Positions 1,873-62,530 of a DNA stretch of 64,000 bases are shown piece after piece. This stretch comes from Deltaproteobacteria bacterium. Its GTDB lineage: Bacteria > Bdellovibrionota > FAC87 > UBA2466. How positions within the stretch are numbered: position 1 is the stretch's first letter; each line of letters opens with the position of its first letter. The notes below the pieces were generated by a model, which did not search any database, was not told the origin of the DNA, and saw only the letters and a list, made by a program, of their open reading frames with translations. The stretch is taken from positions 70-64,069 of the forward strand of contig JACPWY010000055.1 in NCBI GenBank assembly GCA_016196825.1, in the 5' to 3' direction. A program made the position numbers and the translations under genes.

Positions 1873-2076
1873 CCACTGCCCCTGACAAAATCCGTCACCG
1901 TATTCAGGCGAGTTACAGACGATATTTCACACTCTCCCGAAAACCCCTCACTCGTCCGCACGAAAATCCCGCACGGGCCGTGGCACCTCTCTTGCTCTTA
2001 TTAATATTCAGGTTTGGGCCTGTGGCTGCCAGTTTGGCGACCGCCCCCCAAGACCAGTTGTATACAGGTGTGGTGG

Positions 2077-3405: not shown

Positions 3406-3671
3406 CACTCCAAGGGCTTGAAACCGCGAATGAAACAGGATGGGTACACCGCACTTCTTCACAATCCGAGCTGTCCTGAAATTTCACACCTCAAGCCCTC
3501 GACTCCACACCGGTTTTTCAATTGTGTTTTTCGGACCGAATAGCTGGCTTACAGAAATCACCCTTCACAATCTGTCTAAAGTCTCGTCGACACAATTGTC
3601 TTTCCCATCCCATTCCATGGGTTACACGCCATCTCCGGCCCCTGGCGTGCGACTTGAAGGAGATCAGGGGT

Positions 3672-4886: not shown

Positions 4887-5008
4887 CCATAAATAATTCG
4901 CTAACGTGTTGAAATCCCGCGCGAAACATTCCCAGATTTCCCCTTGAATTCAATTTTTGACACATGGTATCAAATGCCCTTCGGTTCAATCGGTTACAGG
5001 GAGAAAAC

Positions 5009-40280: not shown

Positions 40281-40574
40281 TCACTTTCGAAAGGGCGGAA
40301 TCACGAGTGGCTTGGGCTCGAGGGCTGCGGGTTGGTTGGCGCGAACGGACGGCGCCGCGGGTGGAAACTCCAGTATCACGCGAAATGTTTGACCGTTTCG
40401 TCGACAGGTCATCTCGACGGCGTCCCCGGGCCCTACCCCGATGAGCGCGCGCTCCAGATCGAGGCGGTCGCGCACCGCAATGCCTCGCACTTCCTTTTGA
40501 GGAAGTCCGACTGGTCGACGAGTGGCAATTTTTGGAATAAGCTGGATCTCTTTGCGACGCAGCGTAGCAAGCAC
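40281..40574 (-). CDS. small hypothetical protein (possible PDZ-like fold)
   Basis: 97-aa ORF divergent from mmsA. There is weak PDZ-like GVGPGDAV...NG pattern only. Confidence 0.25.
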   Translation of the reverse strand: MLATLRRKEIQLIPKIATRRPVGLPQKEVRGIAVRDRLDLERALIGVGPGDAVEMTCRRNGQTFRVILEFPPAAPSVRANQPAALEPKPLVIPPFRK

Positions 40575-40590
40575 AGTTTTAGGGGGAGTT

Positions 40591-42039
40591 ATGGTCCGAA
40601 ATTACATTGATGGTCGTTGGGTTGATTCGACGGGGCGGGAATCTGTCGACATCATCAACCCCGCCACCGAAGAGGTGCTCGACAAATGTCCACTCGGTAC
40701 AGCCGAGGATGTAAACCGCGCGGTAGCGGCCGCCCAAGCGGCCTTTCCCGCCTGGCGCCAGACGCCGGTCATCGATCGCGTCCAGTATCTTTTCAAACTC
40801 AAAAGCCTGCTCGAGGCCACCTTCGACGAAATCGTCGCCCTCAATACCGCTGAACACGGCAAGACACTGGTCGAATCGCGCGGCGACGTCCGCCGCGGTA
40901 TCCAGATGGTGGAAACTGCCTGCGGCATGCCGAGCCTCATGATGGGCCAATGCTCCGAAGACGTAGCAGCGGGTATCGACTCGATGAGCGTGCGCCAGCC
41001 GATGGGAGTCTTCGCCGCCATCACGCCGTTTAATTTTCCAGCGATGGTTCCCTTTTGGTTTTGGCCATTCGCCATCGCGAGCGGCAACACATTCGTCCTC
41101 AAACCTTCCGAGCGCGTGCCACTCACCCAAGTTAAAATCTTTGGCCTCCTAGAAAAGACCGGCCTACCCAAAGGCGTGATGAATCTGGTCGCGGGCAGCA
41201 AGGATGTGGTCAATGCACTCTGCACTCACCCCGATGTGAAGGGCGTCTCGTTCGTCGGCTCAACTCCGGTCGCGAAACACGTCTACCAAACCGGCACGTC
41301 GCACGGAAAAAGGGTCCAGGCCCTGGGCGGCGCGAAAAATTTCATGGTGATCCTCCCCGACGCCGCGATGGACACCTCCATCAGCACCTGCCTCGAATCG
41401 ATCATCGGCTGCGCCGGGCAGAGGTGCCTCGCAGGCTCCGTGATCATCTCGGTCGGCGATTGCGCCAAGACGGTGAGCGATCGCATCGTACGGCTCGCCA
41501 GCGATGTGCGCATAGGCAACGGCGCCGACCCGCAAACCCACATGGGGCCCGTGATCTCGCGCTCTTCGCTAGAACGGATCCACGGCCTCATCCAATCTGC
41601 GGCCCTTGACGGCGCGCAGATTCTCCTCGATGGCCGGCAGACCGCAGGCCGCGGCTATTTCTTAAAACCCACGGTCATCGCGGGCGTGACTCCCAAGATG
41701 CGCATCGCCCAGGAGGAGATCTTTGGCCCGGTCGTCTGCCTGGCGAACACCGACTCGCTCGCAAGCGCCATCCAGTGGATCAACTCGTCGCCGTTTGCCA
41801 ACACGGCTTCCCTTTTCACCAACTCAGGCGCAGCGGCCCGACAGTTCAGCTACGAGGCGGCCCCGGCCATGTTAGGCCTCAACATTGGGGTCCCGGCCCC
41901 GATGGCCTATTACTCCTTTGGCGGCGCGAAAGATTCCTTTTTTGGTGACGTGAAGGCGCACGGAGCACAGGGCGTGCTCTTCTTCACCGATCAGAAGGTC
42001 ACCATCTCGCGCTGGAAGAAGAACTCAAACATCTGGTGA
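40591..42039 (+). CDS. mmsA: CoA-acylating methylmalonate/malonate-semialdehyde dehydrogenase
   Basis: AAITPFNFPAMVPFWFWPFAIASGNTFVLKPSE and catalytic Cys context GCAGQRCLAGS are MmsA hallmarks. ATG 40591 is preceded by AGGGGGAG. Confidence 0.85.
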   Translation: MVRNYIDGRWVDSTGRESVDIINPATEEVLDKCPLGTAEDVNRAVAAAQAAFPAWRQTPVIDRVQYLFKLKSLLEATFDEIVALNTAEHGKTLVESRGDVRRGIQMVETACGMPSLMMGQCSEDVAAGIDSMSVRQPMGVFAAITPFNFPAMVPFWFWPFAIASGNTFVLKPSERVPLTQVKIFGLLEKTGLPKGVMNLVAGSKDVVNALCTHPDVKGVSFVGSTPVAKHVYQTGTSHGKRVQALGGAKNFMVILPDAAMDTSISTCLESIIGCAGQRCLAGSVIISVGDCAKTVSDRIVRLASDVRIGNGADPQTHMGPVISRSSLERIHGLIQSAALDGAQILLDGRQTAGRGYFLKPTVIAGVTPKMRIAQEEIFGPVVCLANTDSLASAIQWINSSPFANTASLFTNSGAAARQFSYEAAPAMLGLNIGVPAPMAYYSFGGAKDSFFGDVKAHGAQGVLFFTDQKVTISRWKKNSNIW

Positions 42040-42043
42040 GACC

Positions 42044-43426
42044 ATGAAAAAGACCCTCATCAAAAATGGCACGGTCGTGACAGCGACCGACACAGCCGCG
42101 GCCGACATTCTCATCGAAGGGGAAAAGATCGCGGCCATCGGACGCGACCTCTTCCATTCACCCGACACGACGGTCGACGCCACCGGTTGCTACGTCATCC
42201 CGGGCGGCATCGACGCCCACACTCACCTCGATCTCCCCTTCATGGGCACCTCCTCGAGCGACGATTTTGAGACAGGCACCCGCGCGGCCCTCTTTGGCGG
42301 CACGACCTCCATCATCGATTTCGCCTTCCAAACTCAAGGGCGCTCACTCAAAGAGGGGCTCGCCACCTGGCGCGAAAAGGCCGCAGGCCGTGCCATCGCC
42401 GATTATGGATTCCACATCGCCGTCACCGATTTCAATCCGACTGTCCATCAAGAGGTCCGCGACCTAATCGAAAAGGATGGCGTCACCTCCTTTAAGACCT
42501 TCATGGCCTATAAAGGCGCTCTCATGATTGACGATAAGCAGATGATCGGCCTCATGAATGAGGTCAAGAAGTGGGGTGGGCTCGTCACGGTCCACGCCGA
42601 AAATGGTGATCTCGCCGATTCGCTCATTCAGCAAAACTGTGAGGCCAAGAACCTCGCCCCGAAGTTCCACGCCCTTTCACGGCCCGAAATCGTTGAGTCC
42701 GAGGCCACGGGGCGCGCAATTGACATCGCCTACGCCGGAGGCCACCCGCTCTATGTCGTGCACATGACGTGCGAGGGGGCGCTCAACCGAGTGCGCGAGG
42801 CCACCAAGCGCAACCAGACGGTTCTCGTCGAGACCTGCGTGCAGTACCTCCTTCTCGATGATTCCGTCTACGAACGGCCCGGTTTCGAGGGGTCTAAATG
42901 GGTGATGAGCCCTCCGATTCGCAAACCAAAAGATCAGACAGCACTCTGGAACGGGATCGATCAAGGACTCGTCCACACAGTAGCCACCGATCACTGCCCC
43001 TTTTGCCTCGATCAAAAGGCAATGGGGAAGGATGACTTCTCCAAGATCCCCAACGGCGCCCCCGGCATCGAGCACCGGATGGAGCTCATGCACTCCGAGG
43101 GCGTCGTTAAGAACCGGATCACGCTCAACCGTTTCGTCGATCTCAATTGCACAGCGCCTGCGAAGATTTTTGGCCTCTACCCGAAAAAGGGGAGTCTCTC
43201 CGTCGGAAGCGACGCCGACATCGTCATTTTTGATCCCAAGGTGCAGCACACGATTTCCCAAAGCACCCACCACATGCGGTGCGATTACTCGGCCTACGAA
43301 GGCTGGAAGGTCCAGGGCAAGGTCCGCACCGTGTATTTGCGCGGCACCTGCGCCATCGACAAGGGGCAGGTCCTGATTGGCAAGGGCTTTGGACAATACC
43401 TGCCCCGCAAGAAGTTTAAGGAGTAG
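42044..43426 (+). CDS. dihydropyrimidinase / D-hydantoinase
   Basis: Cyclic amidohydrolase N-terminus: KNGTVVTA...VIPGGIDAHTHLDLPFMGTSSSDDFETGTRAALFGGTTSIIDFA. Length 460 aa. Confidence 0.85.
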   Translation: MKKTLIKNGTVVTATDTAAADILIEGEKIAAIGRDLFHSPDTTVDATGCYVIPGGIDAHTHLDLPFMGTSSSDDFETGTRAALFGGTTSIIDFAFQTQGRSLKEGLATWREKAAGRAIADYGFHIAVTDFNPTVHQEVRDLIEKDGVTSFKTFMAYKGALMIDDKQMIGLMNEVKKWGGLVTVHAENGDLADSLIQQNCEAKNLAPKFHALSRPEIVESEATGRAIDIAYAGGHPLYVVHMTCEGALNRVREATKRNQTVLVETCVQYLLLDDSVYERPGFEGSKWVMSPPIRKPKDQTALWNGIDQGLVHTVATDHCPFCLDQKAMGKDDFSKIPNGAPGIEHRMELMHSEGVVKNRITLNRFVDLNCTAPAKIFGLYPKKGSLSVGSDADIVIFDPKVQHTISQSTHHMRCDYSAYEGWKVQGKVRTVYLRGTCAIDKGQVLIGKGFGQYLPRKKFKE

Positions 43427-43428
43427 AA

Positions 43429-44295
43429 ATGGCAAGACCCGTGAAAATTGGCCTCATCCAGATGGCAAGCAAATTGCCGACAAGCGCTTCGTGCGAAGAG
43501 CACAGAAAGGCTATGACCGAGGCGCATGTCACCTACATCGAAGAGGCGGCCAGAAAGGGCGTGAATATTCTCTGCATGCAGGAGATCTTCACCGGCCCCT
43601 ATTTCTGCCCCTCGCAGGAGACGAAATGGTACGGCCTCACCGAGAAGATCCCCGAAGGCCCCACGACCCAGCTCATGATGGAGCTCGCCAAGAAGCACAA
43701 GATGGTGATCGTGGTCCCGATCTATGAGGAGCACATGACCGGCGTTTACTACAACACGGCCGCCGTCATCGATGCTGATGGAAAGTATCTTGGTAAATAC
43801 AGAAAGAATCATATCCCGCAGGTGAAGGGCTTCTGGGAGAAGTTTTTCTTTAAGCCAGGCAACCTCGGCTACCCGGTTTTCAACACCGCCTTTGGCAAAG
43901 TCGGCGTCTACATCTGCTACGATCGGCATTTTCCTGATGGCGCGCGCTGCCTCGGGCTCAATGGCGCTGAAATCGTTTTCAATCCCTCCGCCACGGTGGC
44001 GGGCTTGTCGGAATACCTTTGGGAGATCGAGCAGCCGGCACATGCCGTTGCCAACGGTTACTTCATCGCCGCTATCAACCGCATCGGCCGCGAAGAGCCG
44101 TGGAACATCGGCGATTTCTACGGCCAAAGCTACGTGGCCAGTCCGCGGGGAAAAATTCTTAAGAAAGCCTCGCGCGACAAGGACGAGCTCCTCATCGCCG
44201 ACATCGATCTCGATGAGGTGAAGGAAATTCGAGACCTCTGGCAGTTTTATCGGGACAGGCGACCCGAGACCTATGGCGCCATCACGGAAATTTAA
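43429..44295 (+). CDS. carbon-nitrogen hydrolase family protein, beta-ureidopropionase-like (N-carbamoyl-beta-alanine amidohydrolase)
   Basis: Nitrilase-superfamily E-K-C triad context: KIGLIQM..., ...YRKNHIP..., VGVYICYDRHFPDGAR. Its position between dihydropyrimidinase and aminotransferase supports the call. Confidence 0.75.
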   Translation: MARPVKIGLIQMASKLPTSASCEEHRKAMTEAHVTYIEEAARKGVNILCMQEIFTGPYFCPSQETKWYGLTEKIPEGPTTQLMMELAKKHKMVIVVPIYEEHMTGVYYNTAAVIDADGKYLGKYRKNHIPQVKGFWEKFFFKPGNLGYPVFNTAFGKVGVYICYDRHFPDGARCLGLNGAEIVFNPSATVAGLSEYLWEIEQPAHAVANGYFIAAINRIGREEPWNIGDFYGQSYVASPRGKILKKASRDKDELLIADIDLDEVKEIRDLWQFYRDRRPETYGAITEI

Positions 44296-44305
44296 GGGGA
44301 AAGAC

Positions 44306-45613
44306 ATGATGACCACGGACCAGATAGGTGAAATCAGAAAGAAGCATTTTCTGCACACGACGGTGCACTACTACAAAAAGCCCCTGCAGCTCGTAAAAGC
44401 GAAGAACCAGTATGTCTTCGACGAAACGGGGCGACAGTATTTGGATTGCGTCGGCGGCATCGTCTGCATCTCGGCGGGCCACAACCACCCTCGCATCAAG
44501 GCCCAGCTCAAGAAGATGCTCGACGAGGATGAGATCCAGCACACCTCAACGCTTTATTTTAATCCGCACGCGGCCGAGCTGGCGGCTCGTCTCATCGAAG
44601 AGGCCCCACCGGGAGTGGATCGCGCCTTTTTCACCAACTCCGGCAGCGAGGCCAATGAGCTCGCGTTTCTCGCCGCCCGTCAGGCCACAGGCGAGACGAT
44701 GATCGTGAACCTGCGCCACAGCTACCACGGCTGCACATCCGGCGCTCTTTCTTCTTGCGGCCACAACACGTGGCGATTCCGGAGCCAACCCGTGACGGCC
44801 GTCACCTCCGCGATGGAGCCGTATTGCTATCGGTGTCCATTTGGAAAAGCTCCAAGCTCATGTGAGTTGGAATGCGCGAAAAACGTCGAGACAACGATTC
44901 AGACCACGACCCACGGGAAAATAGCGGCGTTTATCGCCGAGCCCGTGATGGGCGTGGGCGGATTCATCACGCCTCCAGCTGACTACTTTCCCGAGGTCAC
45001 CAAGATCGTCCACAAGTATGGCGGCAAATACATTAGTGACGAAGTCCAGACAGGCGCCGGCCGGGCCGGGCAGACCGTGCTGCTCACCAAGGATCTTGAG
45101 ATCGATGCCGACATGGTGACGATGGCCAAGGGGCTTGGCAACGGCGCCCCCATCGGAGCCACCCTCATGAAGAGTGACATCGCTGAAGCGATGTCGGGCA
45201 AGATGATGTTCAATACCTTCGGCAGCGACCCCTACCAAGCCGCACAGGCCAAGCTCGTGCTCGACATCATCCACGATGAACACCTCATCGAGAACGCCCA
45301 GACCGTCGGAAAATACCTGATGGACAGCCTCAAGGGGCTCATGAAGACGCACCCGCTCATCGGCGATGTCCGAGGCCGCGGCCTCCTTCTGGGTGCCGAG
45401 CTGGTAAAAGATCGCACGACTAAGGAATACGCCACCGCCGAGACGTCCGAGCTGATGGAGCGTTGCCGGGACAAGGGGGTGCTCATCGGAAAGGGTGGCC
45501 TGTTCGGCAACGTCATCCGCTTTGCGCCCCCACTCACCTTCACCCGAGCCAACGCCGACGAGCTCCTGAAGGCTATAGACGAGGGACTCTTCGAAATCGA
45601 GAGGAAGCAATGA
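44306..45613 (+). CDS. class III aminotransferase (beta-alanine/omega-amino acid--pyruvate or 2-oxoglutarate aminotransferase)
   Basis: PLP fold-type I class III pattern: ...FTNSGSEANELA..., DEVQTGAGRAGQ, and the lysine region TMAKGLGNGAPIGA. ATG 44306 is preceded by AAGGGGA. The stop overlaps the next start (ATGA). Confidence 0.8.
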   Translation: MMTTDQIGEIRKKHFLHTTVHYYKKPLQLVKAKNQYVFDETGRQYLDCVGGIVCISAGHNHPRIKAQLKKMLDEDEIQHTSTLYFNPHAAELAARLIEEAPPGVDRAFFTNSGSEANELAFLAARQATGETMIVNLRHSYHGCTSGALSSCGHNTWRFRSQPVTAVTSAMEPYCYRCPFGKAPSSCELECAKNVETTIQTTTHGKIAAFIAEPVMGVGGFITPPADYFPEVTKIVHKYGGKYISDEVQTGAGRAGQTVLLTKDLEIDADMVTMAKGLGNGAPIGATLMKSDIAEAMSGKMMFNTFGSDPYQAAQAKLVLDIIHDEHLIENAQTVGKYLMDSLKGLMKTHPLIGDVRGRGLLLGAELVKDRTTKEYATAETSELMERCRDKGVLIGKGGLFGNVIRFAPPLTFTRANADELLKAIDEGLFEIERKQ

Positions 45614-46887
45614 GTCTCAAGACGGAATTCCTCGGCTTTGAACTCGAGAATCCGTGGTGCCTCGCCTCAGCTCCGCCGACTGCCACAGGAAAGCTCATGA
45701 GCGATGCTTTTGAAGTGGGCTGGGGAGCGGCCATTATGAAGACCGTGGGCCCGGTGGAAGAGCCCATCATTAACGTCGCTCCCCGCATCCACACCTATAA
45801 AAAGTGGAACCGTGAAATTGCGATGCAAAACATCGAGCTCATCACCGATCGCAAGCTCTCGGTCTGGCTCGAAGAGCTCAAAGTCCTTAAGAAGCGATAC
45901 CCCAAGAAGATGGTCATCGGCTCGATCATGGCCCCCGGCCATGAAATGGACGCCTGGGCCCGCCTCATCGAGGAGATGAACCGGGTCGGCTGCGACGCCA
46001 TCGAGCTCAACCTCGGCTGTCCCCACGGCATGCCCGAAAGAGACATGGGTGCTATCTGCTCCCAGGACCCTGAGATCGTCTACAACATCGTCTCCACCTG
46101 CAAGGGTGCAAGCAAGGTTCCCATCCTCACCAAGCTCACGCCGAACGTGACTAATATTAAAGTCATGGCCGCCGCCGCCAAACGCGGTGGCACCGATGCG
46201 ATCACGGTCATCAATACGGTGAACGGCATCATCGGCGTGGACGTCTACTCGCGAAAACCCCACCTTTCGGTGAACGGCTATACCGCTGTCGGCGGCATCT
46301 CAGGTAACGCCGTAAAGCCCATTGGCTTGAAATGCGTCGCCGAGTGCAAGCAGGCGACAGAGCTTCCGATCTCCGCCACCGGCGGCATCACCACATGGTC
46401 CGACGGAGTCGAATACCTCATCATGGGTGCAAGCCAACTCCAGCTCTGCACGGAGGTGATGATCCGCGGCTTTAAGATCATCTCTGGGCTCAATCAAGGC
46501 ATTGAAAAGTACATGACCGAGATGGGTTACACGTCGATAGATGAGGTCAAAGGGACGCTCTATAAAAATATCACGTCATTTGATTACCTTCTCAAACAAA
46601 GCCACTCCGAAAAGGTTCGCGTTAACGAAGAGACCTGCACCGGCTGCAACATCTGCGTCGTCGCCTGCCGCGACGCCGGCTACGACGCCCTCAAGCTGAA
46701 AGGCGTCCCCGCCCACGATCGCACCAAAGGAACTCGCAATGTGGCCGACGTCATCGTAGATCACTGCACGGGCTGCAACCTCTGCGTCGCCGTCTGCCCA
46801 GTGCCAGAATGCATGAGCCTCTACGACTCCCATGAACAATTCCCTTACGACCTCCACACCAGCTACGCACAGAATACGTTAACGTAA
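45610..46887 (+). CDS. preA: dihydropyrimidine dehydrogenase PreA-like subunit (DHOD-like TIM barrel + two 4Fe-4S ferredoxin motifs)
   Basis: N-terminal dihydroorotate-dehydrogenase-like barrel (LASAPPT..., IELNLGCPHGM, GGITT). C-terminal CTGCNICVVACRDAG and CTGCNLCVAVCPVPEC. ATG 45610 overlaps the upstream stop. Confidence 0.75.
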   Translation: MSLKTEFLGFELENPWCLASAPPTATGKLMSDAFEVGWGAAIMKTVGPVEEPIINVAPRIHTYKKWNREIAMQNIELITDRKLSVWLEELKVLKKRYPKKMVIGSIMAPGHEMDAWARLIEEMNRVGCDAIELNLGCPHGMPERDMGAICSQDPEIVYNIVSTCKGASKVPILTKLTPNVTNIKVMAAAAKRGGTDAITVINTVNGIIGVDVYSRKPHLSVNGYTAVGGISGNAVKPIGLKCVAECKQATELPISATGGITTWSDGVEYLIMGASQLQLCTEVMIRGFKIISGLNQGIEKYMTEMGYTSIDEVKGTLYKNITSFDYLLKQSHSEKVRVNEETCTGCNICVVACRDAGYDALKLKGVPAHDRTKGTRNVADVIVDHCTGCNLCVAVCPVPECMSLYDSHEQFPYDLHTSYAQNTLT

Positions 46888-46937
46888 GGGGCCAGTCGCC
46901 TTCCAATATTGAAAGGTGCCGGGTCCTAGAAATGACC

Positions 46938-47297
46938 TTAATAGGGAACGCGAATATCCGGCCATTTCCGGGAGAAGTCCTTCGTATTCCGAGTGACCAA
47001 CACATACCCGAGGCGCTCCGCAGTGGCTTTGATGATTGCGTCGGGAATTCTCATCTTAAACTTCCTACGAACTCGGACAGTTTCCTTCGCCATTTCACCA
47101 TCAATCGCGTGAGTCTTGAAACGGCTTAGAAACCCGGCAAGCTCGATCTCCTCACGACCACTTCGAGCCCCGACCAAAATTTCGATTTGTGTGATGATAC
47201 TAATGTGCAGTTCATCGTAGCGCTCAAACTCCTCCTTCGAACGCCGGTCGCCGTTCAGGTAGTCAATCAAGATATTGGTGTCAAAAACGGCGTTCAC
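46938..47297 (-). CDS. vapC: PIN-domain toxin VapC
   Basis: MNAVFDTNILIDYL... carries the PIN N-terminal Asp. The later acidic residues and TRNTKDF are also present. Length 119 aa. Confidence 0.75.
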   Translation of the reverse strand: MNAVFDTNILIDYLNGDRRSKEEFERYDELHISIITQIEILVGARSGREEIELAGFLSRFKTHAIDGEMAKETVRVRRKFKMRIPDAIIKATAERLGYVLVTRNTKDFSRKWPDIRVPY

Positions 47298-47521
47298 TTT
47301 TTTTCCCAGTCCTTCCTCAGTTTCTTTTCATAAGCCAGGGAGTCCACACCCCGTCCCTTCCACAAACCGAACGAGGCGTCCTTCGGCAAGCAATGGGGGG
47401 ACTCCGCGAGAAACAGGGTGATAGCCCTTCGAATGGCCTCAGCCCGCGAAATGGACTCTTTCGCGCAAATCTCAGCGAGCTGCTTGATTATCTTCTCCGG
47501 AATGTCGATGAGAGTCTTCAT
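47294..47521 (-). CDS. vapB: ribbon-helix-helix (CopG-like) antitoxin VapB
   Basis: 75 aa. ...ISRAEAIRRAITLFL... is RHH-like. There is a 4-nt overlap with vapC. Confidence 0.6.
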   Translation of the reverse strand: MKTLIDIPEKIIKQLAEICAKESISRAEAIRRAITLFLAESPHCLPKDASFGLWKGRGVDSLAYEKKLRKDWEKK

Positions 47522-47615
47522 TCATATAGTATATCTATATATAATATGCTTTTCAAGCTGGATGGAGTTTTCAGCAGTAGGCGTAATTGCCGAAATTGTC
47601 CTATAGAATAATCAC

Positions 47616-49055
<1,440 letters not shown>

Positions 49056-49061
<6 letters not shown>

Positions 49062-54326: not shown

Positions 54327-54764
54327 TCACTCCCCGATATCCTCATTCCACAGCTCGGGGGAGCGCACTATAAATACGCGCATGAGCTCGATGCAGCGGG
54401 AGTCATCGACAATCGTCAGCTCCACGCCGCGGCTTTTCACATAGTCCTCCGGCCCCTGGAACGATCGGTTCTCACCGATCACGATGCGGGGGATCTTATA
54501 AAGCAGCGCCGTTCCGCTGCACATGTCACAGGGCGAAAGCGTCGAGTAAAGAACCGCGTGCTGATAGTCGCGCGCTTTCAAGCGGCCCGCGTTTTCAAGA
54601 CAATCCATCTCAGCGTGCAAAATCGAGCTTCCCTTTTGCACCCGGCGGTTGTGACCACGCCCCACAATCTTTCCGCCGAGGACCAGCACCGACCCAATAG
54701 GAATGCCGCCCTCTTTCAGACCCAGCTCCGCCTCTTCAATAGCCGCTTTCAAAAACTCGCTCAT
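54327..54764 (-). CDS. cytosine deaminase, Fcy1/yeast-type (CDA fold)
   Basis: Collinear with Fcy1: EEAELGLKEGGIPIGSVLV...GRGHNRRVQKGSSILHAEMDCLENAGRL...LYSTLSPCDMCSGTALLYKIPRIVIGEN...RGVELTIVDDSRCIELM...WNEDIGE. Zinc ligands HAE and PCxxC are present. Confidence 0.85.
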   Translation of the reverse strand: MSEFLKAAIEEAELGLKEGGIPIGSVLVLGGKIVGRGHNRRVQKGSSILHAEMDCLENAGRLKARDYQHAVLYSTLSPCDMCSGTALLYKIPRIVIGENRSFQGPEDYVKSRGVELTIVDDSRCIELMRVFIVRSPELWNEDIGE

Positions 54765-55426
54765 ATCAACAGGTCCTCAAAGAAAGCTCCACACCCGGTC
54801 TTCGGATCGTAGAGCTGGATCTCCAGAATCCACCGCCCTTCGGTGGGGACAAAATCGATCTCCCAAAGTCCGTGGTTGAAGTACTGGCGATGAGAAAACT
54901 CCGACAGGCGGTGCCCATCCACATCGGTCTTGAGCTCAAAGCCCTCACCTCGCGCCTGACCACTCAGCCACTCGTAGAGCTGTCGTCCTTTGGGGCGCTC
55001 GGCCTTCCAATGGTCGCAACCTTTTCTGTAAAGAGACGCGGCGGTTCGCGCCAAATGGTCGAGGTCATCGCTCTTCCCGACGGTGAAGGTCTCGCCGATA
55101 TCCCCTTCATACTCGACGCCATCGATCACCCAATTCGGACCCAGGTCGAGAAAGAAGATGTCATCCTTTTGCAATATCGATCGCACCCTCTGGTTCTCGT
55201 TGAACTTATAGATCGTGTTCTTCCCGACCCGCACCACCGGCCGGTGCCACGCCCGTGGCGAGCCCATCCGCTGCATGTGACTGACAGCTATTTCAACGAT
55301 GGCAATCTCATCCATTCCCGGCCGCACCTCGGCCGCTATCTCATTCAATGCCCGGCGGGACAAATCCTGCGCCTTGATAAGGCCCGCCAATTGGAATACG
55401 TCCCCTGATCTCTCGAGAGGGTTCAC
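54761..55426 (-). CDS. M24/pita-bread-fold-like protein (short; creatinase/aminopeptidase-like)
   Basis: 221 aa. Segments DDIFFLDLGPNWVIDGVEYEGDIGETFTVG and ...TEGRWILEIQLYD...GAFFEDLL resemble M24 metal-ligand blocks. It is co-directional and overlapping with KMO. Confidence 0.35.
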   Translation of the reverse strand: MNPLERSGDVFQLAGLIKAQDLSRRALNEIAAEVRPGMDEIAIVEIAVSHMQRMGSPRAWHRPVVRVGKNTIYKFNENQRVRSILQKDDIFFLDLGPNWVIDGVEYEGDIGETFTVGKSDDLDHLARTAASLYRKGCDHWKAERPKGRQLYEWLSGQARGEGFELKTDVDGHRLSEFSHRQYFNHGLWEIDFVPTEGRWILEIQLYDPKTGCGAFFEDLLI

Positions 55427-56772
55427 AACATCGCCTCCACCAGCTTCTTAGCCCGCGCAATGTCGACATCCTCAGCAATCTCGATCCCATCGCACAGCTC
55501 ATCCAGAATTTTTTGCTGAATGAGCCCCTTCTCATAGGCCTCCCGGTACGGCGTGCGCGTGAACGACACCAGCGTGTAGCGCGGCACATACCGGCTCGGA
55601 AAGGCCGCTTGGAGCAGACGCTCCACCTTTTTCTCGAGTTGAAATCTTGTATCGGCCACCTTGTCGCGCATCTCGATAAAGTTCTCGATCGCCATGTCGG
55701 CTATTGCATCGGCGTTGGATTTGCGGCGCGAATAGAAATCATCAAAGGCCGCATCCCAATCCTCTCCCCACTTCTCAAGACACTCATTGAGGACGGAACA
55801 ATCCTCAAATCCGCAGTTCATCCCCTGCCCAAAAAACGGCACGATCGCATGGGCCGCGTCTCCCAGCAGAAGCACGCGACCCTTCACAAACCAGGGCCCC
55901 GCCTTTACGGTCACCATCTTCCCGGTCGGGTGGCCAAAGAACTCTTCGGTCAGATTTGGAATGTGATCCAAAGCATCCACGAACTGACTCTCAAAGAAAC
56001 TCTCAACGGCTGCCTTATCATTCAGCGCCGCGAAGCTCCTCTCCCCCTCAAAGGGCAAAAAGAGCGTGCAGGTGAAGCTCCCCTCTTCATTGGGAAGCGC
56101 AATGAGCATGTCCTTCCCGCGCGGCCAGATGTGAAGCGCGTTCTTTTCGATCGCAAACCCGCCCCCCGGAAGTGCTGGCATGACGACCTCTTTATAACCG
56201 TGGCTCAAATGCGATTCGCTCGTGTCGACTCCCATCGAGTCGCGCATCGCATGCCGAATCACCGACGCCGAGCCATCCGTGCCGAGAATCCGTTCATACG
56301 TCGCCTCTCGCCTTTTCCCGTCCCGCTCGCTCATGATCTGAAGAGTATTGGTCTCAAAATCGATTCCGGTCACCGTGGAATAAAATTGAAACCGCACGCG
56401 CCCCGTCTTTTCCGCCCCCGTCATCAACATCTTATTGAGCCCATTACGCGAAACGGAATTGATGCACTGGCCACTCGCTCCGTAAGGTTGAAACTGGTTC
56501 CGGCCGTCGAGCATGTGGACCATCCGCCCTGGCATCTGGATAATGTGCGGCAAAACTTCGTCTTTGAGCCCAATTTCTTCGAGCGCGTGAAGACCACGCA
56601 CCGAAATCGCCAAGTTGATTGAACGCCCTTCGCCCACCGACTCCCGACGCATGTCTCCGCGCCGCTCAAACACATCGCTCTGAAATCCCCTCCGCGCCAA
56701 GTAGGTTGCCAGCACCGACCCCACAAGGCCCCCGCCCACAATCGCAATAGGCGCTGTCACAGGTGTCGCCAT
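55423..56772 (-). CDS. kmo: kynurenine 3-monooxygenase
   Basis: FAD-binding N-terminus IAIVGGGLVGSVLA. The KMO-specific EGRSINLAISVRG block is present. The FAD monooxygenase fold continues throughout. Confidence 0.8.
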   Translation of the reverse strand: MATPVTAPIAIVGGGLVGSVLATYLARRGFQSDVFERRGDMRRESVGEGRSINLAISVRGLHALEEIGLKDEVLPHIIQMPGRMVHMLDGRNQFQPYGASGQCINSVSRNGLNKMLMTGAEKTGRVRFQFYSTVTGIDFETNTLQIMSERDGKRREATYERILGTDGSASVIRHAMRDSMGVDTSESHLSHGYKEVVMPALPGGGFAIEKNALHIWPRGKDMLIALPNEEGSFTCTLFLPFEGERSFAALNDKAAVESFFESQFVDALDHIPNLTEEFFGHPTGKMVTVKAGPWFVKGRVLLLGDAAHAIVPFFGQGMNCGFEDCSVLNECLEKWGEDWDAAFDDFYSRRKSNADAIADMAIENFIEMRDKVADTRFQLEKKVERLLQAAFPSRYVPRYTLVSFTRTPYREAYEKGLIQQKILDELCDGIEIAEDVDIARAKKLVEAML

Positions 56773-57974
56773 AGCTCCTCCGAAAAGTGCCATACATCTT
56801 CATAAGAATTGTAAAATGGCACCGGCGCCACCCGAATCACATCCGGGAAGCGGAAATCAGCGATAATCCCTTGCGCCTTCATGGCCCTCACGACCGCCTC
56901 AGCGCTCTTGTGGCGAAAAGACAACTGAGAACCCCGGCGGGCTGATTCGCGCGGCGTGAGAAGCTCGGCCTCAGGATTCAGGAATTCCATAAACGCCGTG
57001 AGGCGCTCGCTCTTCTTACGGATCTCACCCATCCCTGCTTCATCAAAGAGCGAAAGCGACGCCCTTAGCGCTGCGGCCTGAAAAATAGGCGGATTGGAAA
57101 CCTGCCAACGCTCGACCGTGGGAATGGGCTTGAAACCATCCGTCATAAGAAATCGGCTCTTTTTGTCATGGCCCCACCAACCCGCACACTGCGGAACATC
57201 CGCCGCATGATGCTTCTCATGAACAAAGCAGCCCGCAATCGCGCCTGGGCCTGCGTTGAGGTATTTGTACGAGCACCAAACCGCAAAATCGATCTCCCAA
57301 TCATGGAGATTCAAAGAAAGATTTCCGATCCCATGCGCTAGATCGACTCCAAAAACCACACCCGCCTTCTGAGTCGCCCGAGCCACGGCCTCGAGGTCAA
57401 ACGCCCGGCCCGTGATGTAGTTCGGCTGGCCCAAAATCACGAGAGCGATCTTTTCGCCGTTCTCCTCGATAAACCGAATGATCTCGGAATCGCTCTCGGT
57501 TTTAAGCCGCACCACCGCCTTCGCAAATCCATGAAACTCAGCCTGGGACTGCACCGCATAACGATCCGATGAAAACGCGCCATCCTCGATCACAATCCAA
57601 TGGCGATCGGTCGTGGGCCTATAGAATGACACCATCATCAAATGAAGATTCACCGTGAGCGAATTCATCGCTACGACTTCACTCGGTCGCGCCCCCGTGA
57701 GCCGGCAGAGCGGCTCCGTCAAAAACTCATGGTACGGCAGCCAGGGGAATTTCCCTTTGAGGTGCCCCTCGACGCCGAGTGTCCGCCACTGCTCGAGTTC
57801 CGCTTCAAGATACCGCTTCGTCTCGATGGGCTCCAAACCCAAGGAGTTGCCGGTCAGGTAGACCGTGTCCCTTCCCTGGTGTTGCGGCGTAAAAAACTTC
57901 GCGCGGAAACGCGCCAGGGGATCCTGCCGATCCAGCTCCTGGGCACACGCCAGGCTCTTTTCAAAAGGCTTCAT
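56757..57974 (-). CDS. kynU: kynureninase
   Basis: Hallmark YLTGNSLGLEP and PLP-dependent class V-like fold pattern. Length 405 aa. Confidence 0.85.
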   Translation of the reverse strand: MKPFEKSLACAQELDRQDPLARFRAKFFTPQHQGRDTVYLTGNSLGLEPIETKRYLEAELEQWRTLGVEGHLKGKFPWLPYHEFLTEPLCRLTGARPSEVVAMNSLTVNLHLMMVSFYRPTTDRHWIVIEDGAFSSDRYAVQSQAEFHGFAKAVVRLKTESDSEIIRFIEENGEKIALVILGQPNYITGRAFDLEAVARATQKAGVVFGVDLAHGIGNLSLNLHDWEIDFAVWCSYKYLNAGPGAIAGCFVHEKHHAADVPQCAGWWGHDKKSRFLMTDGFKPIPTVERWQVSNPPIFQAAALRASLSLFDEAGMGEIRKKSERLTAFMEFLNPEAELLTPRESARRGSQLSFRHKSAEAVVRAMKAQGIIADFRFPDVIRVAPVPFYNSYEDVWHFSEELWRHL

Positions 57975-58969
57975 GGCAGCCCCAGCCAGACACGAGCATT
58001 GCCGGCGAGCATTCCGGTCTTCTCTACCTCAGACAGATCGGACATCGACTGGATCATTTCACCCGGGCGAAGTTCACCCAGCGGAAACGGGTAGTCGGAC
58101 CCCAACAAAATCTTGTCGGCGCCAAAGACCTTCAGGCAATGGCGAAGAAGATCCGGAGCGTGGACTATCGAATCCACGAAAAAATGGCCCAAATATTTCT
58201 TGGGGTTCACGGGATTCTGCGTGGCTACAAGATCCGGTCTCGCGCTAAAGCCGTGTTCCATCCGACCATACACACTCGCAAAGCTCCCGCCCCCATGCGC
58301 GAAAGCCACCCGCAGCTTGGGGAATTTTTCAAACACACCGCCAAAGATGAAATGGGCGATGGCGAGCGCTGTTTCCGTCGGCATCCCGATGAGCCATGGC
58401 AACCAATACCGATCCATCCGCTCTTTCCCCAACATCTCCCAAGGGTGAACAAAGAGCGCCGCCCCCAGACGCTCAGCCTCCGCGTAAAAGGGAAATAACG
58501 ACGCATCATCGAGGCTACGACCATTGAAGTGGGTCCCGATCTGCACACCACTGAGTTTGAGATCCTTCACAACCCTTTGGAGCTCCAGCGTCGCCAGCTC
58601 GGCGTCCTGCAAAGGCACCGTCGCCAACCCCAAAAACCTCTTCGGGTGCTGGGCCACGACACCTGCCAGGTGATCGTTCAAGAAGCGCGCCACCTCGAGC
58701 GTGTCTCTTCCTTTGGCCCAATAGTTAAACATCACCGGAACCGTCGATAAAACTTGGGTGGCCACACCCTGAGCATCGCACTCTTCAACGCGACGTTTCG
58801 GATCCCAGCAGTTGTCCCCGACCTCGCGAAAGAATCGCCCGTCGTCATACACCATACGCGCGTTACACCCGGCCTTATGCTGCACCTCGATGAACCCTCC
58901 GTATCCAAAGCGCTCCGCAAAACGCGGCACCCTTTTGGGAAGGATGTGGGTGTGGACGTCGATCTTCAC
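57971..58969 (-). CDS. 2-amino-3-carboxymuconate-6-semialdehyde decarboxylase (amidohydrolase_2)
   Basis: [11 protein letters not shown]-terminal metal-binding motif. The ACMSD-like pattern continues through ...FVHPWEM. A GTG start at 58969 overlaps the upstream stop (GTGA). Confidence 0.75.
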
Positions 58970-59502
58970 GCGGCCTTCTCCACCTTCGTTCCACACTGGG
59001 GACAGGTGCATTTCGCGGGATCGGAATAGAACCGGTCAAACACTGGCGGGAGCTGCGAGACGATGTTGGTGAGCCTGAAAAATTCATCGTAGAGGCGGGT
59101 ATTACAATTGGGGCAGTACCAGACAAAACCATCGAGTTCATGGGGCAGGCGTTTGCGCTCAACGACAAGCCCGACGGTGTTGGCCGGCCGCTGGGGGGAA
59201 TGCGGCACCTTTCGCGGCAGGAGATAGATCTCCCCCTGGCGAATGGGAATCTCGTAGGGCTTGCCCTCTTTCATGATTCGCAACGTGATGTCACCCTCGA
59301 TCTGATAAAAAAACTCCTCACCCTCATTCACATGGTAATCGGTTCGTCGGTTCGGCCCGCCCACCACCATAATGATGAACTCTCTGTCCTCCCACACCTG
59401 CTGATTGCCGACGGGCGGCTTGAGAAGGTGCCGGTGCTCATCGATCCACTTCTGAAAATTAATGGCCTGAAAAAACTCCATCACGTCACTCCAAAGTCGC
59501 AA
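58966..59502 (-). CDS. 3-hydroxyanthranilate 3,4-dioxygenase
   Basis: Cupin HAO pattern (...[30 protein letters not shown]...). C-terminal rubredoxin-like CPNC...CPQC. The start is either 59502 or the internal MEFFQ at 59481. Confidence 0.8.
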
Positions 59503-59914
59503 TGCATTTCAGCTCGATCGCAATCGGCGTCGGGAGGCTTGTGATCCCGAGAGTGGTGCGGCACGGCTGGTGGGTTTTGAAATATTCACTATAGATCTTG
59601 TTATAGATCGGAAAATCGTCGCGCATGTTGGTGAGGTAGACCGTCACATCCACCAATCTGTCCCAACCGCTTCCGGCCTCCTCGAGAATCACCTTCACAT
59701 TGTGAAAGACCGAGTGACACTGCTGGGCGATGTCGTAGCTCGTAATCTTACCGTCAGGGCCAAGTGTCACGCCCGGAATCTCCTTTTTGCCTCGTTCGCG
59801 CGGCCCCACGCCCGACAGAAACAACAGGTTTCCCACCCGGCGCGCGTGCGGGTAGGCCCCCACCGGTTCCGGGGCTCGACTCGATCTCACCTCATCGGAC
59901 TTGAATGCAGACAT
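59486..59914 (-). CDS. RidA/YjgF family deaminase (2-aminomuconate deaminase-like)
   Basis: RidA fold signature: 142 aa ...[19 protein letters not shown]... and C-terminal ...[21 protein letters not shown]. Confidence 0.75.
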
Positions 59915-61376
59915 TTTTCGACTCCGTAAAGAATCTCATCGCCTCAAAACCACCCTCGCGCCCCAGTCCCGACTGTTTCACGCCGCCAAAAGGGGTGCGT
60001 AGGTCGCGCACCATCCAGCAGTTGCCCCACACCATCCCCACTTCAAGCCCCTGGCCAAATCGGTGGAGACGACCTGCGTCGGCGGTCCACACGCTCGCGG
60101 CAAGGCCATACACCGATTGGTTTGCAAGCCCCAACGCCTCGTTCTCCGTGTCAAAAGGAACCAGGGTGACGACAGGGCCAAAGATCTCCTCTTGGTTCGT
60201 ACGACAATCATTTTTCAAACCGGTAATGACGGTCGGCTCGATAAACCACCCCTTCGCGCAACGCCCCCGAGCGGCGAATCGCTGGCCCCCACAAAGAATT
60301 TTTCCGCCCTCTTTCCGAGCGAATTCCAGGTAGCCCATCACCTTCTTGAAATGGGTCTCCGAGACCACAGCGCCCTGGTCGGTGGCTTCGTCGTCGGGAT
60401 CTCCAACGCGCAATCGCTGAACGCGCTCGACAAAACCTTGCGTGAATTTGTCAAAGAGCGACCGCTCAACAAGGATGCGCGATCCACAGAGACAGATCTG
60501 CCCCTGGTTGGAGAAGCCGGCCCGCACACACTCGCTCAACGTCCGATCAAAATCACAGTCGGCAAAAACAATTGTCGCATTCTTGCCCCCCATCTCAAGC
60601 GACACCTTCTTGAAATCCTTCGCGACCGCTTCACTGATAGCTCGCCCGGTCGCCGTGCTGCCGGTGAAGGTTACTGCCTTAACGTCGGGGTGAGTCACAA
60701 GCGGAGATCCCACTCGAGGTCCGCTGCCGTGAACGATGTTGAGAACGCCCGCAGGAAACCCCATTTCACTCGCGAGTTTTCCCAGAAGTCCCGCGGTCAA
60801 TGGCGTTATTTCCGAGGGCTTTGCGACCACGCAATTCCCGGCAGCCAAAGCCGGCGCGATCTTCCAAGTGAACAGATAAAGCGGCAGGTTCCACGGAGAG
60901 ATCGCCCCCACTACCCCCAAAGGCTTTCTCAGCGTGTAATGGATCGCATCCCCCGAGGCGTGGCTTTCCGACGCAAACTGGGTTGCCACGTCAGCGAAGA
61001 ATTCGAAATTGAGAATGCTCCGGGGGATGTCCACCGACCGCGCCACTGAGCGGGGCTTGCCCGTGTTTTGGCTTTCCGCTTCTGCCATGAGCTCGAGGTT
61101 ATCACTGATTGAGGTCGCCAGGCGCCGGAGCCATCGGCCCCGTTCCTGTGCGGAGAGTGCACTCCAGAAGGGGAATGCATGCCGCGCGGCCTCTATCGCA
61201 TTCGCCACGTCGGCCGCGCCGGAATCGGGCGCGTTCCCCAAAACCGCCCCCGCGGCCGGCTCAAAAAACGGGAGCGTCCCACCCTCGGTCGCGGGCACGA
61301 GCTTGCCATCGATAAGATTCAAAACTGACTGCACGCGACTAGTTTTGTCGGGGGAGGCACGAAGTGCAAGGGACAA
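59892..61376 (-). CDS. aldehyde dehydrogenase (2-aminomuconate-6-semialdehyde dehydrogenase-like)
   Basis: Aldehyde dehydrogenase family: ...ISPWNLPLYLFTWKIAPALAAGNCVVAKPSE, ELGGKN, and catalytic Cys in GQICLCGSR. It belongs to the kynurenine cluster. Confidence 0.8.
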   Translation of the reverse strand: MSLALRASPDKTSRVQSVLNLIDGKLVPATEGGTLPFFEPAAGAVLGNAPDSGAADVANAIEAARHAFPFWSALSAQERGRWLRRLATSISDNLELMAEAESQNTGKPRSVARSVDIPRSILNFEFFADVATQFASESHASGDAIHYTLRKPLGVVGAISPWNLPLYLFTWKIAPALAAGNCVVAKPSEITPLTAGLLGKLASEMGFPAGVLNIVHGSGPRVGSPLVTHPDVKAVTFTGSTATGRAISEAVAKDFKKVSLEMGGKNATIVFADCDFDRTLSECVRAGFSNQGQICLCGSRILVERSLFDKFTQGFVERVQRLRVGDPDDEATDQGAVVSETHFKKVMGYLEFARKEGGKILCGGQRFAARGRCAKGWFIEPTVITGLKNDCRTNQEEIFGPVVTLVPFDTENEALGLANQSVYGLAASVWTADAGRLHRFGQGLEVGMVWGNCWMVRDLRTPFGGVKQSGLGREGGFEAMRFFTESKNVCIQVR

Positions 61377-61411: not shown

Positions 61412-62530
61412 TCAGGGAAACTCCATGGCCCACCAGGTCTGGAAGAGTGTGCAGGGGGCGCCGCCGCCACAGACATTGCCGCCGCCGTGGCTGTTGCCGC
61501 CGTTACCCTTGATGACAAGCAGATTATTGGTGGCCGAGCCACCCTGGTTCTTGGCGGGAAGACTTAAGTGGTCATAGTACATCGATTCGTAATCGTTGAA
61601 GGTGCTGTGACACGTCAAACAGCTTCCGATGCCGTTCTTCACCGTATTGTTGAAATAGTTCGTCCCCGCTGTCGTCGGCGAGTAGAGGAGATAATTGTAC
61701 GGACTCTTCGACAGAACTGAGGCCGTGCCGCCGCTTAAGCTCGGCGCGTCTGTGAAAAGGGTGTGGTTAGTCCCGTTGCGATACGCGGCTGGAATCTGGA
61801 AATTGAAGCCGTGATTACCGGAAAAGCCCGACGGCGGCGTCGCCAGATTCGCGGTCGTCGATCCGATGAGCGTCCCGGTCCCTTTGGGCCCATCGATATA
61901 GAAATTGATCACAACCGGTGAGGTCTGGGCCCCGATGTCGACCGCCCACCCCAGCACCTGGCCCCGGTTAGTCATGAGGGTGATTTGGCCGATAGGAGAC
62001 GAGCTCGTCACACCACCGCGTGAAGCCACCTCTTTCGCCCACCAGATCTTCACCTCGAAGCATGGCGAGTTGTTGCTACTCCCTGAACAGACGTCTCCGC
62101 CGGTGTGGGCAATCTGATTTCGCATTCGGCTCATCAGGGAATTTGTATCGGGGCTCGATCCGTTGAGAAGCTGGGCCACCATCTTGTCATAAGAATAGAT
62201 CGTCAGACCGCCCGAACCGCCAAAGCGCGGGTCGTTGTGACAGCTCGTGCATTGCGCCTGAAACGAAAGAGCCACCGTGTTGGCGAAATAGGAGGAGGGA
62301 GAATTCGGATCGCCCCCAATAGCCCCACCGCCCCCTGACCCATTTCCGGACCCAGAACCAGTGGACCCATTGCCCCCAGCCGCACTCCCCAGCTGCGAGG
62401 GAAACCGAAACCCGCAGCCCGAAAGGGCCACCAGGACGCAAATGGCCAGGATAGCAGTAACTTGAGAGTACTTCGTGTGAGTGGGCACGCCCCTAATAAG
62501 TGCAATCCCCAGGCCCAAACGCCCACGCAC
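61412..62530 (-). CDS. lipoprotein with two CxxCH motifs (putative di-heme c-type cytochrome-like) and Gly/Ser-rich linker
   Basis: Lipobox-like ILAICVLVALSGC. The low-complexity stretch GGNGSTGSGSGNGSGGGG. CTSCH and CLTCH heme-binding-type motifs. Confidence 0.5.
   Translation of the reverse strand: MRGRLGLGIALIRGVPTHTKYSQVTAILAICVLVALSGCGFRFPSQLGSAAGGNGSTGSGSGNGSGGGGAIGGDPNSPSSYFANTVALSFQAQCTSCHNDPRFGGSGGLTIYSYDKMVAQLLNGSSPDTNSLMSRMRNQIAHTGGDVCSGSSNNSPCFEVKIWWAKEVASRGGVTSSSPIGQITLMTNRGQVLGWAVDIGAQTSPVVINFYIDGPKGTGTLIGSTTANLATPPSGFSGNHGFNFQIPAAYRNGTNHTLFTDAPSLSGGTASVLSKSPYNYLLYSPTTAGTNYFNNTVKNGIGSCLTCHSTFNDYESMYYDHLSLPAKNQGGSATNNLLVIKGNGGNSHGGGNVCGGGAPCTLFQTWWAMEFP

Follow-up and report, generated by a model that had tools for sequence, protein, structure and literature searches.

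In Burkholderia cenocepacia J2315 a tryptophan cluster takes kynurenine to 2-aminomuconate, which is then deaminated by a 2-aminomuconate deaminase (AMD) of the RidA family. This cluster, ascribed to Colabroy and Begley (2005), reportedly comprises the upstream and downstream steps as well, the latter leading from 4-oxalocrotonate to pyruvate and acetate. That RidA-type proteins act as AMD in bacterial kynurenine clusters is known from work on the Burkholderia cluster (bioRxiv 10.64898/2026.06.05.730449). The same chemistry is predicted for the gene block reported here, which occupies positions 54327-61376 of a 64,000-nt stretch of DNA from a bacterium of the Bdellovibrionota (assembly GCA_016196825.1, contig JACPWY010000055.1); this whole stretch is termed the window, and all positions refer to it. 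The 3-hydroxyanthranilate 3,4-dioxygenase (HAO), 2-amino-3-carboxymuconate-6-semialdehyde decarboxylase (ACMSD) and 2-aminomuconate-6-semialdehyde dehydrogenase (AMSDH) of the Burkholderia cluster are homologous to those of the window. The block is probably a kynurenine-catabolic operon, with an M24-like hydrolase gene linked to it by position only and with a terminal cytosine deaminase gene that most likely serves pyrimidine catabolism.

Among predatory bacteria, kynA, the gene for tryptophan 2,3-dioxygenase (TDO), has been found in all 14 genomes examined, usually apart from the other pathway genes, and obligate predators possess TDO but no other gene of the kynurenine pathway (PMC4646340). 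In contrast to these cultured obligate predators, uncultured relatives of Bdellovibrio such as the one described here carry the whole downstream pathway. A transfer of the kynurenine pathway from eukaryotes to bacteria is unsupported by published phylogenies (PMC4217691).

Gene content of the kynurenine block

Eight co-oriented open reading frames (ORFs) on the minus strand fill the block nearly without intergenic space. By homology, using hidden Markov models (HMMs) and solved homologues, five of the products are assigned as AMSDH, HAO, ACMSD, kynureninase (KYNU) and kynurenine 3-monooxygenase (KMO), and a sixth belongs to the RidA family. The first gene of the block encodes AMSDH (59892..61376; PF00171, 555 bits), whose top matches in the PDB are all 2-aminomuconate 6-semialdehyde dehydrogenases (447-467 bits) and which shares 64% identity with the corresponding gene of a syntenic relative, locus L006. 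It is followed by a RidA/YjgF-family protein (59486..59914; PF01042, 90 bits), which is probably the 2-aminomuconate deaminase, as the solved AMD 6izh (75 bits) is among its top three PDB matches. The HAO gene (58966..59481; TIGR03037, 266 bits, cut-off 146) matches the Cupriavidus enzyme 1yfu with 186 bits. Its mechanical ORF reaches back to a TTG at 59502, while the ATG at 59481 yields 171 residues, matching the relatives, and a rubredoxin-like CxxC...CxxC tail is formed at the C-terminus by Cys130, Cys133, Cys167 and Cys170.

The next gene encodes ACMSD (57971..58969; PF04909, 152 bits), which scores 431 bits against the human enzyme and 248 bits against that of Pseudomonas. Its start is likely the GTG at 58969 and not the ATG at 59011 of the mechanical ORF, because the resulting 332 residues agree with the relatives and the alignment with human ACMSD begins there, which is residue 15 in the numbering of the longer ORF. 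KYNU (56757..57974; TIGR01814, 385 bits, cut-off 246) is likewise eukaryote-like, with 322 bits against the human and 180 bits against the P. fluorescens enzyme, and by similarity it would be of the 3-hydroxykynureninase type. KMO (55423..56793; PF01494, 90 bits; alternative start ATG 56772) matches solved KMOs in the PDB with 222-327 bits and is 70-74% identical to the KMOs of two syntenic relatives, L005 and L006. The two last genes encode a 221-residue M24-like protein with a GTG start (54761..55426; PF00557, 53.1 bits, cut-off 23) and a cytosine deaminase of the yeast Fcy1 type (54327..54764; PF00383, 72 bits).

The genes are tightly coupled. ATGA overlaps are read in the sequence at the ACMSD/KYNU and M24-like/cytosine deaminase junctions and a GTGA overlap at the KMO/M24-like junction; a further GTGA overlap joins HAO and ACMSD, provided that ACMSD begins at GTG 58969. 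RidA and HAO are separated by 4 nt, provided that HAO begins at ATG 59481, and AMSDH and RidA overlap by 23 nt, as they do in the closest relative. A scan for promoter consensus sequences gave matches at background level, and terminator-like matches occurred at about twice the shuffle mean, most of them inside genes and none marking an operon boundary. From the junctions, the block would be read as a single transcript.

An earlier, sequence-only reading of this region had named the six enzymes from KMO to AMSDH, the GTGA and ATGA junctions, the rubredoxin-like tail of HAO and an M24-like protein without an assigned role whose start overlaps the KMO stop. All of these features are confirmed, with the order and span given there and with the genes on the minus strand, and the label 'eukaryote-like' attached to the cluster fits two of the enzymes, KYNU and ACMSD. 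The eighth co-oriented gene, the cytosine deaminase, had been omitted.

Upstream of AMSDH, at a distance of 35 nt, a predicted lipoprotein of 372 residues is encoded (61412..62530, minus strand), which contains two CxxCH motifs and a Gly/Ser-rich linker. Its Pfam matches are all sub-threshold, and it is 48% identical to the L006 gene (2312-3196) upstream of AMSDH.

The core operon across bacteria

A KMO alignment was scanned against one genome per species. At least 582 relatives were confirmed, each in a different species genome, and neighboring genes were counted in the best 80 of these KMO loci. KMO-containing kynurenine pathways had been called uncommon in bacteria, which is true in relative terms, yet at least 582 species genomes match.

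KYNU adjoins KMO in 71 of the 80 loci, HAO in 55/80, AMSDH in 49/80, ACMSD in 46/80 and RidA in 43/80, the last at the same position as in the window. Less frequent neighbors are a short-chain dehydrogenase/reductase (SDR, 32/80), a KynB-type cyclase (17/80), a hydrolase of the FAA family (13/80) and an alpha/beta hydrolase (7/80). TDO adjoins KMO in only four of the 80 loci, so that an operon lacking TDO is the rule and not the exception, and an M24-like gene is found in a single one, which is the window's own relative. Several further neighbor clusters were antisense shadow-ORF 'families' (for example c12, the antisense of AMSDH) and were discarded.

All six core genes occur together in 35/80 loci. 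The exact order of the window, AMSDH-RidA-HAO-ACMSD-KYNU-KMO on one strand, is found in 23 of the 80, which come from Corallococcus, Myxococcus, Archangium, Microbulbifer and Kangiella as well as Bdellovibrionales, Bacteriovoracaceae and metagenome-assembled genomes (MAGs) of Elusimicrobia and Bacteroidetes. These loci thus span Myxococcota, Bdellovibrionota, Elusimicrobia, Bacteroidota and Gammaproteobacteria. Many of the 80 loci, on the other hand, carry HAO-KYNU-KMO alone, without ACMSD, AMSDH and RidA. For every gene of the block the closest locus is that of an uncultured Pseudobdellovibrionaceae MAG, GCA_964603655.1, with 74% identity for KMO and 48-84% for the other genes. The bacterium of the window is accordingly placed in or near Bdellovibrionota and is most likely a member with affinity to Pseudobdellovibrionaceae.

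Given its recurrence in several phyla and the rarity of TDO beside KMO, the arrangement is not special: the six-gene core is an ordinary, widely conserved bacterial kynurenine operon and adds a further case to a catabolic module that has been well described and is frequent among soil and predatory bacteria. What is unusual is the intact M24-like gene at the operon end, which is confined to one small lineage.

In many Myxococcota and Bdellovibrionota operons an SDR gene lies directly 3' of KMO (L014-L022, L029, L036, L056, L070, L086 and others). This KMO-trailing SDR might catalyse a step after 2-aminomuconate or 4-oxalocrotonate that has so far escaped recognition.

Proposed pathway and missing steps

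Based on the assignments above, kynurenine would be hydroxylated by KMO, and the eukaryote-like kynureninase would then yield 3-hydroxyanthranilate and alanine. Ring opening by HAO would give 2-amino-3-carboxymuconate semialdehyde, part of which may cyclise spontaneously to quinolinate as a side flow towards nicotinamide adenine dinucleotide (NAD). The remainder would be decarboxylated by ACMSD, the product oxidised to 2-aminomuconate by AMSDH, and 2-aminomuconate deaminated by the RidA-type protein to 2-oxohex-3-enedioate (4-oxalocrotonate). In sum, the predicted enzymes would convert kynurenine to 2-oxohex-3-enedioate, and alanine, CO2 and ammonia would be set free along the way. Flux along this route is presumed from the gene set, and conversion past 4-oxalocrotonate would depend on unlinked genes.

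The first two steps, from tryptophan to kynurenine, had been described as absent from the window, and this is confirmed by each of the searches performed. Pfam scans of all large ORFs of the window revealed neither TDO, a KynB-type cyclase, an alpha/beta-hydrolase formamidase nor IDO; PF03301, PF04199 and alpha/beta-hydrolase matches are lacking throughout it. HMMs of the KynB cyclase, alpha/beta hydrolase, SDR and FAA hydrolase, built from KMO neighbors in other genomes and run with hmmsearch against six-frame translations, gave no match at E<=1 in the window and the sister contigs. A TDO HMM, the seed of which was validated by Pfam (247 bits), found no match in the window, nor did tblastn with a TDO sequence. 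Genes for 4-oxalocrotonate decarboxylase, hydratase and aldolase gave no Pfam match in the window either, where the FAA-hydrolase HMM was negative as well, and nadC was not detected in the window by Pfam scans.

The window represents nearly the whole contig, which is only 64,088 nt long, and therefore kynA and kynB are not located immediately outside it. In view of the survey of predatory genomes cited above, a kynA gene elsewhere in this genome is plausible. TDO and a formamidase would thus be supplied by genes at other sites of the genome, an arrangement that for TDO is usual in operons of this type.

The M24-like protein

The M24-like protein is tied to the kynurenine pathway by its position only. 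An AlphaFold2 model was obtained with a mean predicted local distance difference test (pLDDT) score of 91.4 and a predicted template modelling (pTM) score of 0.89. Foldseek returned 210 PDB matches for it at E<=0.001, and the 50 matches listed are all methionine aminopeptidases (MetAPs), prolidases or aminopeptidases P, with template modelling (TM) scores of 0.6-0.74. The top matches are the catalytic domains of MetAP1 and prolidase, which superpose on nearly the whole protein with TM scores of about 0.7 at 15-21% sequence identity. The protein nevertheless stays far below all curated NCBIfam cut-offs for MetAP and PepP (TIGR00500, 25 of 171 bits; TIGR00501, 17 of 223; PepP, 16 of 465). Its sole Pfam match is PF00557, and no homology to the KynB cyclase or to the AFMID alpha/beta hydrolase was found.

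An alignment of 16 family members of 215-245 residues contains 31 invariant columns, among them Asp94, Asp109, His172, Glu202, His61 and His179, while Glu217 is conserved in at least 90% of the sequences. In profile alignments, Asp94, Asp109 and His172 align to Asp97, Asp108 and His171 of E. coli MetAP, and His179 aligns to the conserved histidine of the GHGxxxxFH motif. In the model, Glu202 and Glu217 occupy the two final beta-strands, the site of the glutamate ligands in M24 enzymes, and judged by motif and position they may be equivalent to Glu204 and Glu235 of E. coli MetAP. The model and the conserved residues suggest that the protein is probably a minimal, divergent two-metal hydrolase which is cytoplasmic and active.

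The family of the protein is large and uncharacterised; its members have about 230 residues, and a profile search yielded at least 1805 of them and a metagenome scan at least 542 loci. The family had appeared very rare from 18 matches in a single-sequence search, a result that is due to the word-based candidate step of that search and was overturned by the profile search and the metagenome scan. Three members, the window's protein and two orthologues with 56-59% identity (P0001-P0003), form a clade that is the only one among those examined with the M24 gene beside kynurenine genes. The position after KMO is kept in both orthologues, and the overlap of the M24-like start with the KMO stop is found in the window and in L005. 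Two changes mark this clade, namely a Pro-to-Ser exchange before the invariant His179 and a three-residue insertion between the two Asp ligands. Divergence between the window and its syntenic relatives is alike for the M24-like protein (56-59% identity), KYNU (54-58%) and ACMSD (62%). The shared synteny with these two relatives takes in the upstream cytochrome-c-like lipoprotein (48%) and the cytosine deaminase (75-84%).

Elsewhere the family is found in other surroundings. In some 90 further loci of the family, no KMO, KYNU, HAO, ACMSD, RidA or TDO gene is a neighbor; instead, a MocR-type regulator recurs in 10 loci, an amino-acid permease in 8 and a DJ-1/AraC regulator in 7, and small ferredoxins are recurrent too. 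In a neighbor-joining tree P0001-P0003 are sister to P0004, which adjoins a C11 peptidase, and the next branch consists of Bacteriovoracaceae proteins placed after proB-proA-yajQ-yqeY. P0019, P0020 and P0033 are next closest by sequence distance, and the genes around that of P0033 encode a PTR2 peptide transporter, an S58 peptidase and a protein with a beta-lactamase fold.

A mainstream module of the short M24 proteins is represented by L090 (5519-8687) and L091 (6086-8693), where a divergent MocR-type regulator (GntR plus aminotransferase), an amino-acid permease and a ferredoxin/ferredoxin-reductase precede the M24 gene. A redox partner beside a 'peptidase' is odd.

Cytosine deaminase and pyrimidine genes

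The terminal gene of the block matches the structures of the yeast enzyme with 156-159 bits over residues 6-145, that is over its full length. The zinc-binding motifs HAE and PCDMC of the CDA pattern HAE...PCxxC are present in the translation, and the gene is conserved downstream in the relatives with 75% (L005) and 84% (L006) identity. Its start overlaps the stop of the M24-like gene, and it is therefore probably part of the same transcript; the tail of the transcription unit is thus not confined to kynurenine chemistry.

At a distance of about 5 kb, a complete-looking cluster for reductive pyrimidine catabolism is found on the plus strand (40522-49061). It encodes an aldehyde dehydrogenase, a dihydropyrimidinase-like protein (Amidohydro_1), a beta-ureidopropionase-like protein (CN_hydrolase) and a class III aminotransferase. 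Also encoded there are a PreA-like dihydropyrimidine dehydrogenase subunit (DHO_dh plus 4Fe-4S) and a cytosine/uracil permease.

The cytosine deaminase most likely serves this nearby pyrimidine catabolism and not tryptophan breakdown, and together the two suggest a use of cytosine and uracil as nitrogen sources.

In the two syntenic relatives, a gene for a membrane protein of the Phage_holin_4_2 family with four transmembrane segments (PF04020; L005 4740-5165, L006 10137-10574) separates the M24-like gene from that of the cytosine deaminase. This gene is missing in the window, where the M24-like and cytosine deaminase genes overlap directly.

Alternative readings of the block

As an accessory or passenger enzyme, the M24-like protein would hydrolyse a small amide or dipeptide, its substrate being most likely a small amide of either the dipeptide or the acyl-amino-acid type. 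Such a role is more likely than that of an N-formylkynurenine formamidase of a third, non-homologous type, which would have displaced the KynB cyclase in this lineage and would let the operon span the route from formylkynurenine to 2-oxohex-3-enedioate. The latter proposal is attractive in several respects, and we nonetheless consider it doubtful. Hydrolysis of formylkynurenine is the sole amide-cleaving step of the pathway without a gene in the block; the metal site of the M24-like protein is intact; its gene is coupled to KMO by the start/stop overlap in the window and in L005; it has diverged as fast as the enzymes of the pathway; and the changes specific to the kynurenine-linked clade, the Pro-to-Ser exchange and the insertion, lie near the active site.

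The distribution of KynB points in the same direction. In five Bdellovibrionota operons (L013, L036, L056, L070 and L086) a KynB-type cyclase is encoded at the 5' end, whereas in the window and in L006 the M24-like gene is present but neither KynB nor an alpha/beta hydrolase, a distribution that fits a role in the pathway better than that of a passenger. It also counts against the interpretation given above that the proposed substrate class is drawn only from the fold and from the neighbors of distant relatives, and that TDO, the formamidase and the steps past 4-oxalocrotonate have to be assumed to be encoded elsewhere in the genome.

The complementarity of KynB and M24 is, however, confounded, because this lineage's block likewise lacks the genes of the SDR and the FAA hydrolase found alongside KynB in other loci. 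It was down-weighted for this reason, and also because it derives from two or three independent lineages only and because there are further KMO operons near which a candidate formamidase is missing (e.g. L026 and L032). Furthermore, not one of the roughly 90 other family loci lies near a kynurenine gene or TDO, and the sister branches are found in peptidase, peptide-transport or proline contexts. Shared synteny was rejected as evidence of function, because it includes the unrelated cytochrome-c-like and cytosine deaminase genes, and the adjacency to KMO may be a matter of simple inheritance. An arylformamidase is not known among the characterised M24 enzymes. A literature search for a link between M24 proteins and a kynurenine formamidase returned nothing relevant.

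If the M24-like protein were nevertheless a formamidase, this would constitute a non-orthologous gene displacement, in which a housekeeping amidohydrolase family was recruited in a small lineage of Bdellovibrionota and kynB was lost from the operon. In any case, N-formylkynurenine is a concrete candidate substrate for the short-M24 family, which lacks a characterised member.

The catabolic assignment of the core enzymes has itself a competitor. A cluster devoted mainly to de novo synthesis of NAD, from tryptophan via quinolinate, would equally require KMO, KYNU and HAO, which are the enzymes of the quinolinate branch; the many loci with HAO-KYNU-KMO only would agree with such a purpose, and bacterial pathways from kynurenine to NAD are documented (PMC4217691). 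In the window, however, ACMSD, AMSDH and the RidA-type deaminase, which draw the HAO product off quinolinate, are encoded in the same tightly coupled block and nadC is missing, so that a biosynthetic function appears improbable.

Finally, the M24-like ORF might be taken for the remnant of a decayed gene for a methionine or X-Pro aminopeptidase, given its short length of 221 residues and a Pfam match covering only profile positions 3-170 of 208. This is refuted by the conservation data: the full-length family itself, with its many members, measures 215-245 residues and retains the metal ligands among its invariant columns, the AlphaFold2 model, with its mean pLDDT of 91, includes the last two strands, the Foldseek alignments to catalytic domains of M24 enzymes extend over nearly the entire protein, and the orthologues retain both length and start, as expected of an intact, conserved and full-length gene.

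Other features of the window

Apart from the kynurenine and pyrimidine genes, the window encodes a giant protein of 3847 residues (27931-39474, plus strand) with repeated HYDIN/VesB/CFA65-like, ASH and Cep192-like immunoglobulin domains, which is probably a surface or adhesin protein. Two tandem S8 subtilases of 463 and 454 residues, followed by a 1219-residue protein without a Pfam match, are located at 2014-8623 on the plus strand, which fits a proteolytic, possibly predatory lifestyle. Near the contig end (62726-63646, minus strand) lies the gene of a 306-residue protein with a C-terminal HNH nuclease domain, the resemblance of which to IscB is weak and sub-threshold (24 bits against a cut-off of 175).

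Comparison with known systems

Compared with E. coli MetAP, the M24-like protein is about 40 residues shorter and has no N-terminal domain, and its identity to M24 structures is limited to 15-21%. With the catalytic domains of MetAP1 and prolidase (MEROPS M24) it shares the pita-bread fold and the aligned Asp-Asp-His ligands, and as in MetAP and prolidase a GHxxxxFxH motif is present and two C-terminal glutamates are found in the last two strands.

With respect to the eukaryotic pathway, KYNU and ACMSD of the window score far higher against the human than against the Pseudomonas enzymes, while for KMO the scores against the mammalian and the Pseudomonas enzymes are equal. Unlike in eukaryotes, the genes are organised in a bacterial operon and HAO is of the short bacterial form with its Cys4 site. 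Moreover, 2-aminomuconate would be passed, as it is in bacteria and fungi, to a deaminase of the RidA type and not to the ASPDH-type reductase of metazoa.

In contrast to the Burkholderia cluster, the 64-kb contig of the window holds neither TDO and formamidase nor the steps after the deaminase; its KYNU and ACMSD are nearer to the human enzymes, and the M24-like and cytosine deaminase genes are appended to the block.

Closest in arrangement are the operons of Myxococcota and Bdellovibrionota (Corallococcus L017, L019 and L020; Bdellovibrionia MAG L086), which are identical in order and strand and whose proteins are 50-75% identical to those of the window. The L086 operon also has TDO, which the window's does not. 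These operons have an SDR after KMO, which is missing in the window's lineage, and in many of them a KynB-type cyclase (in Bdellovibrionota) or, close by, an alpha/beta hydrolase (in Myxococcota) is added, as is an FAA-family hydrolase. In place of all these additional genes, the SDR and TDO included, the lineage of the window carries the M24-like gene.

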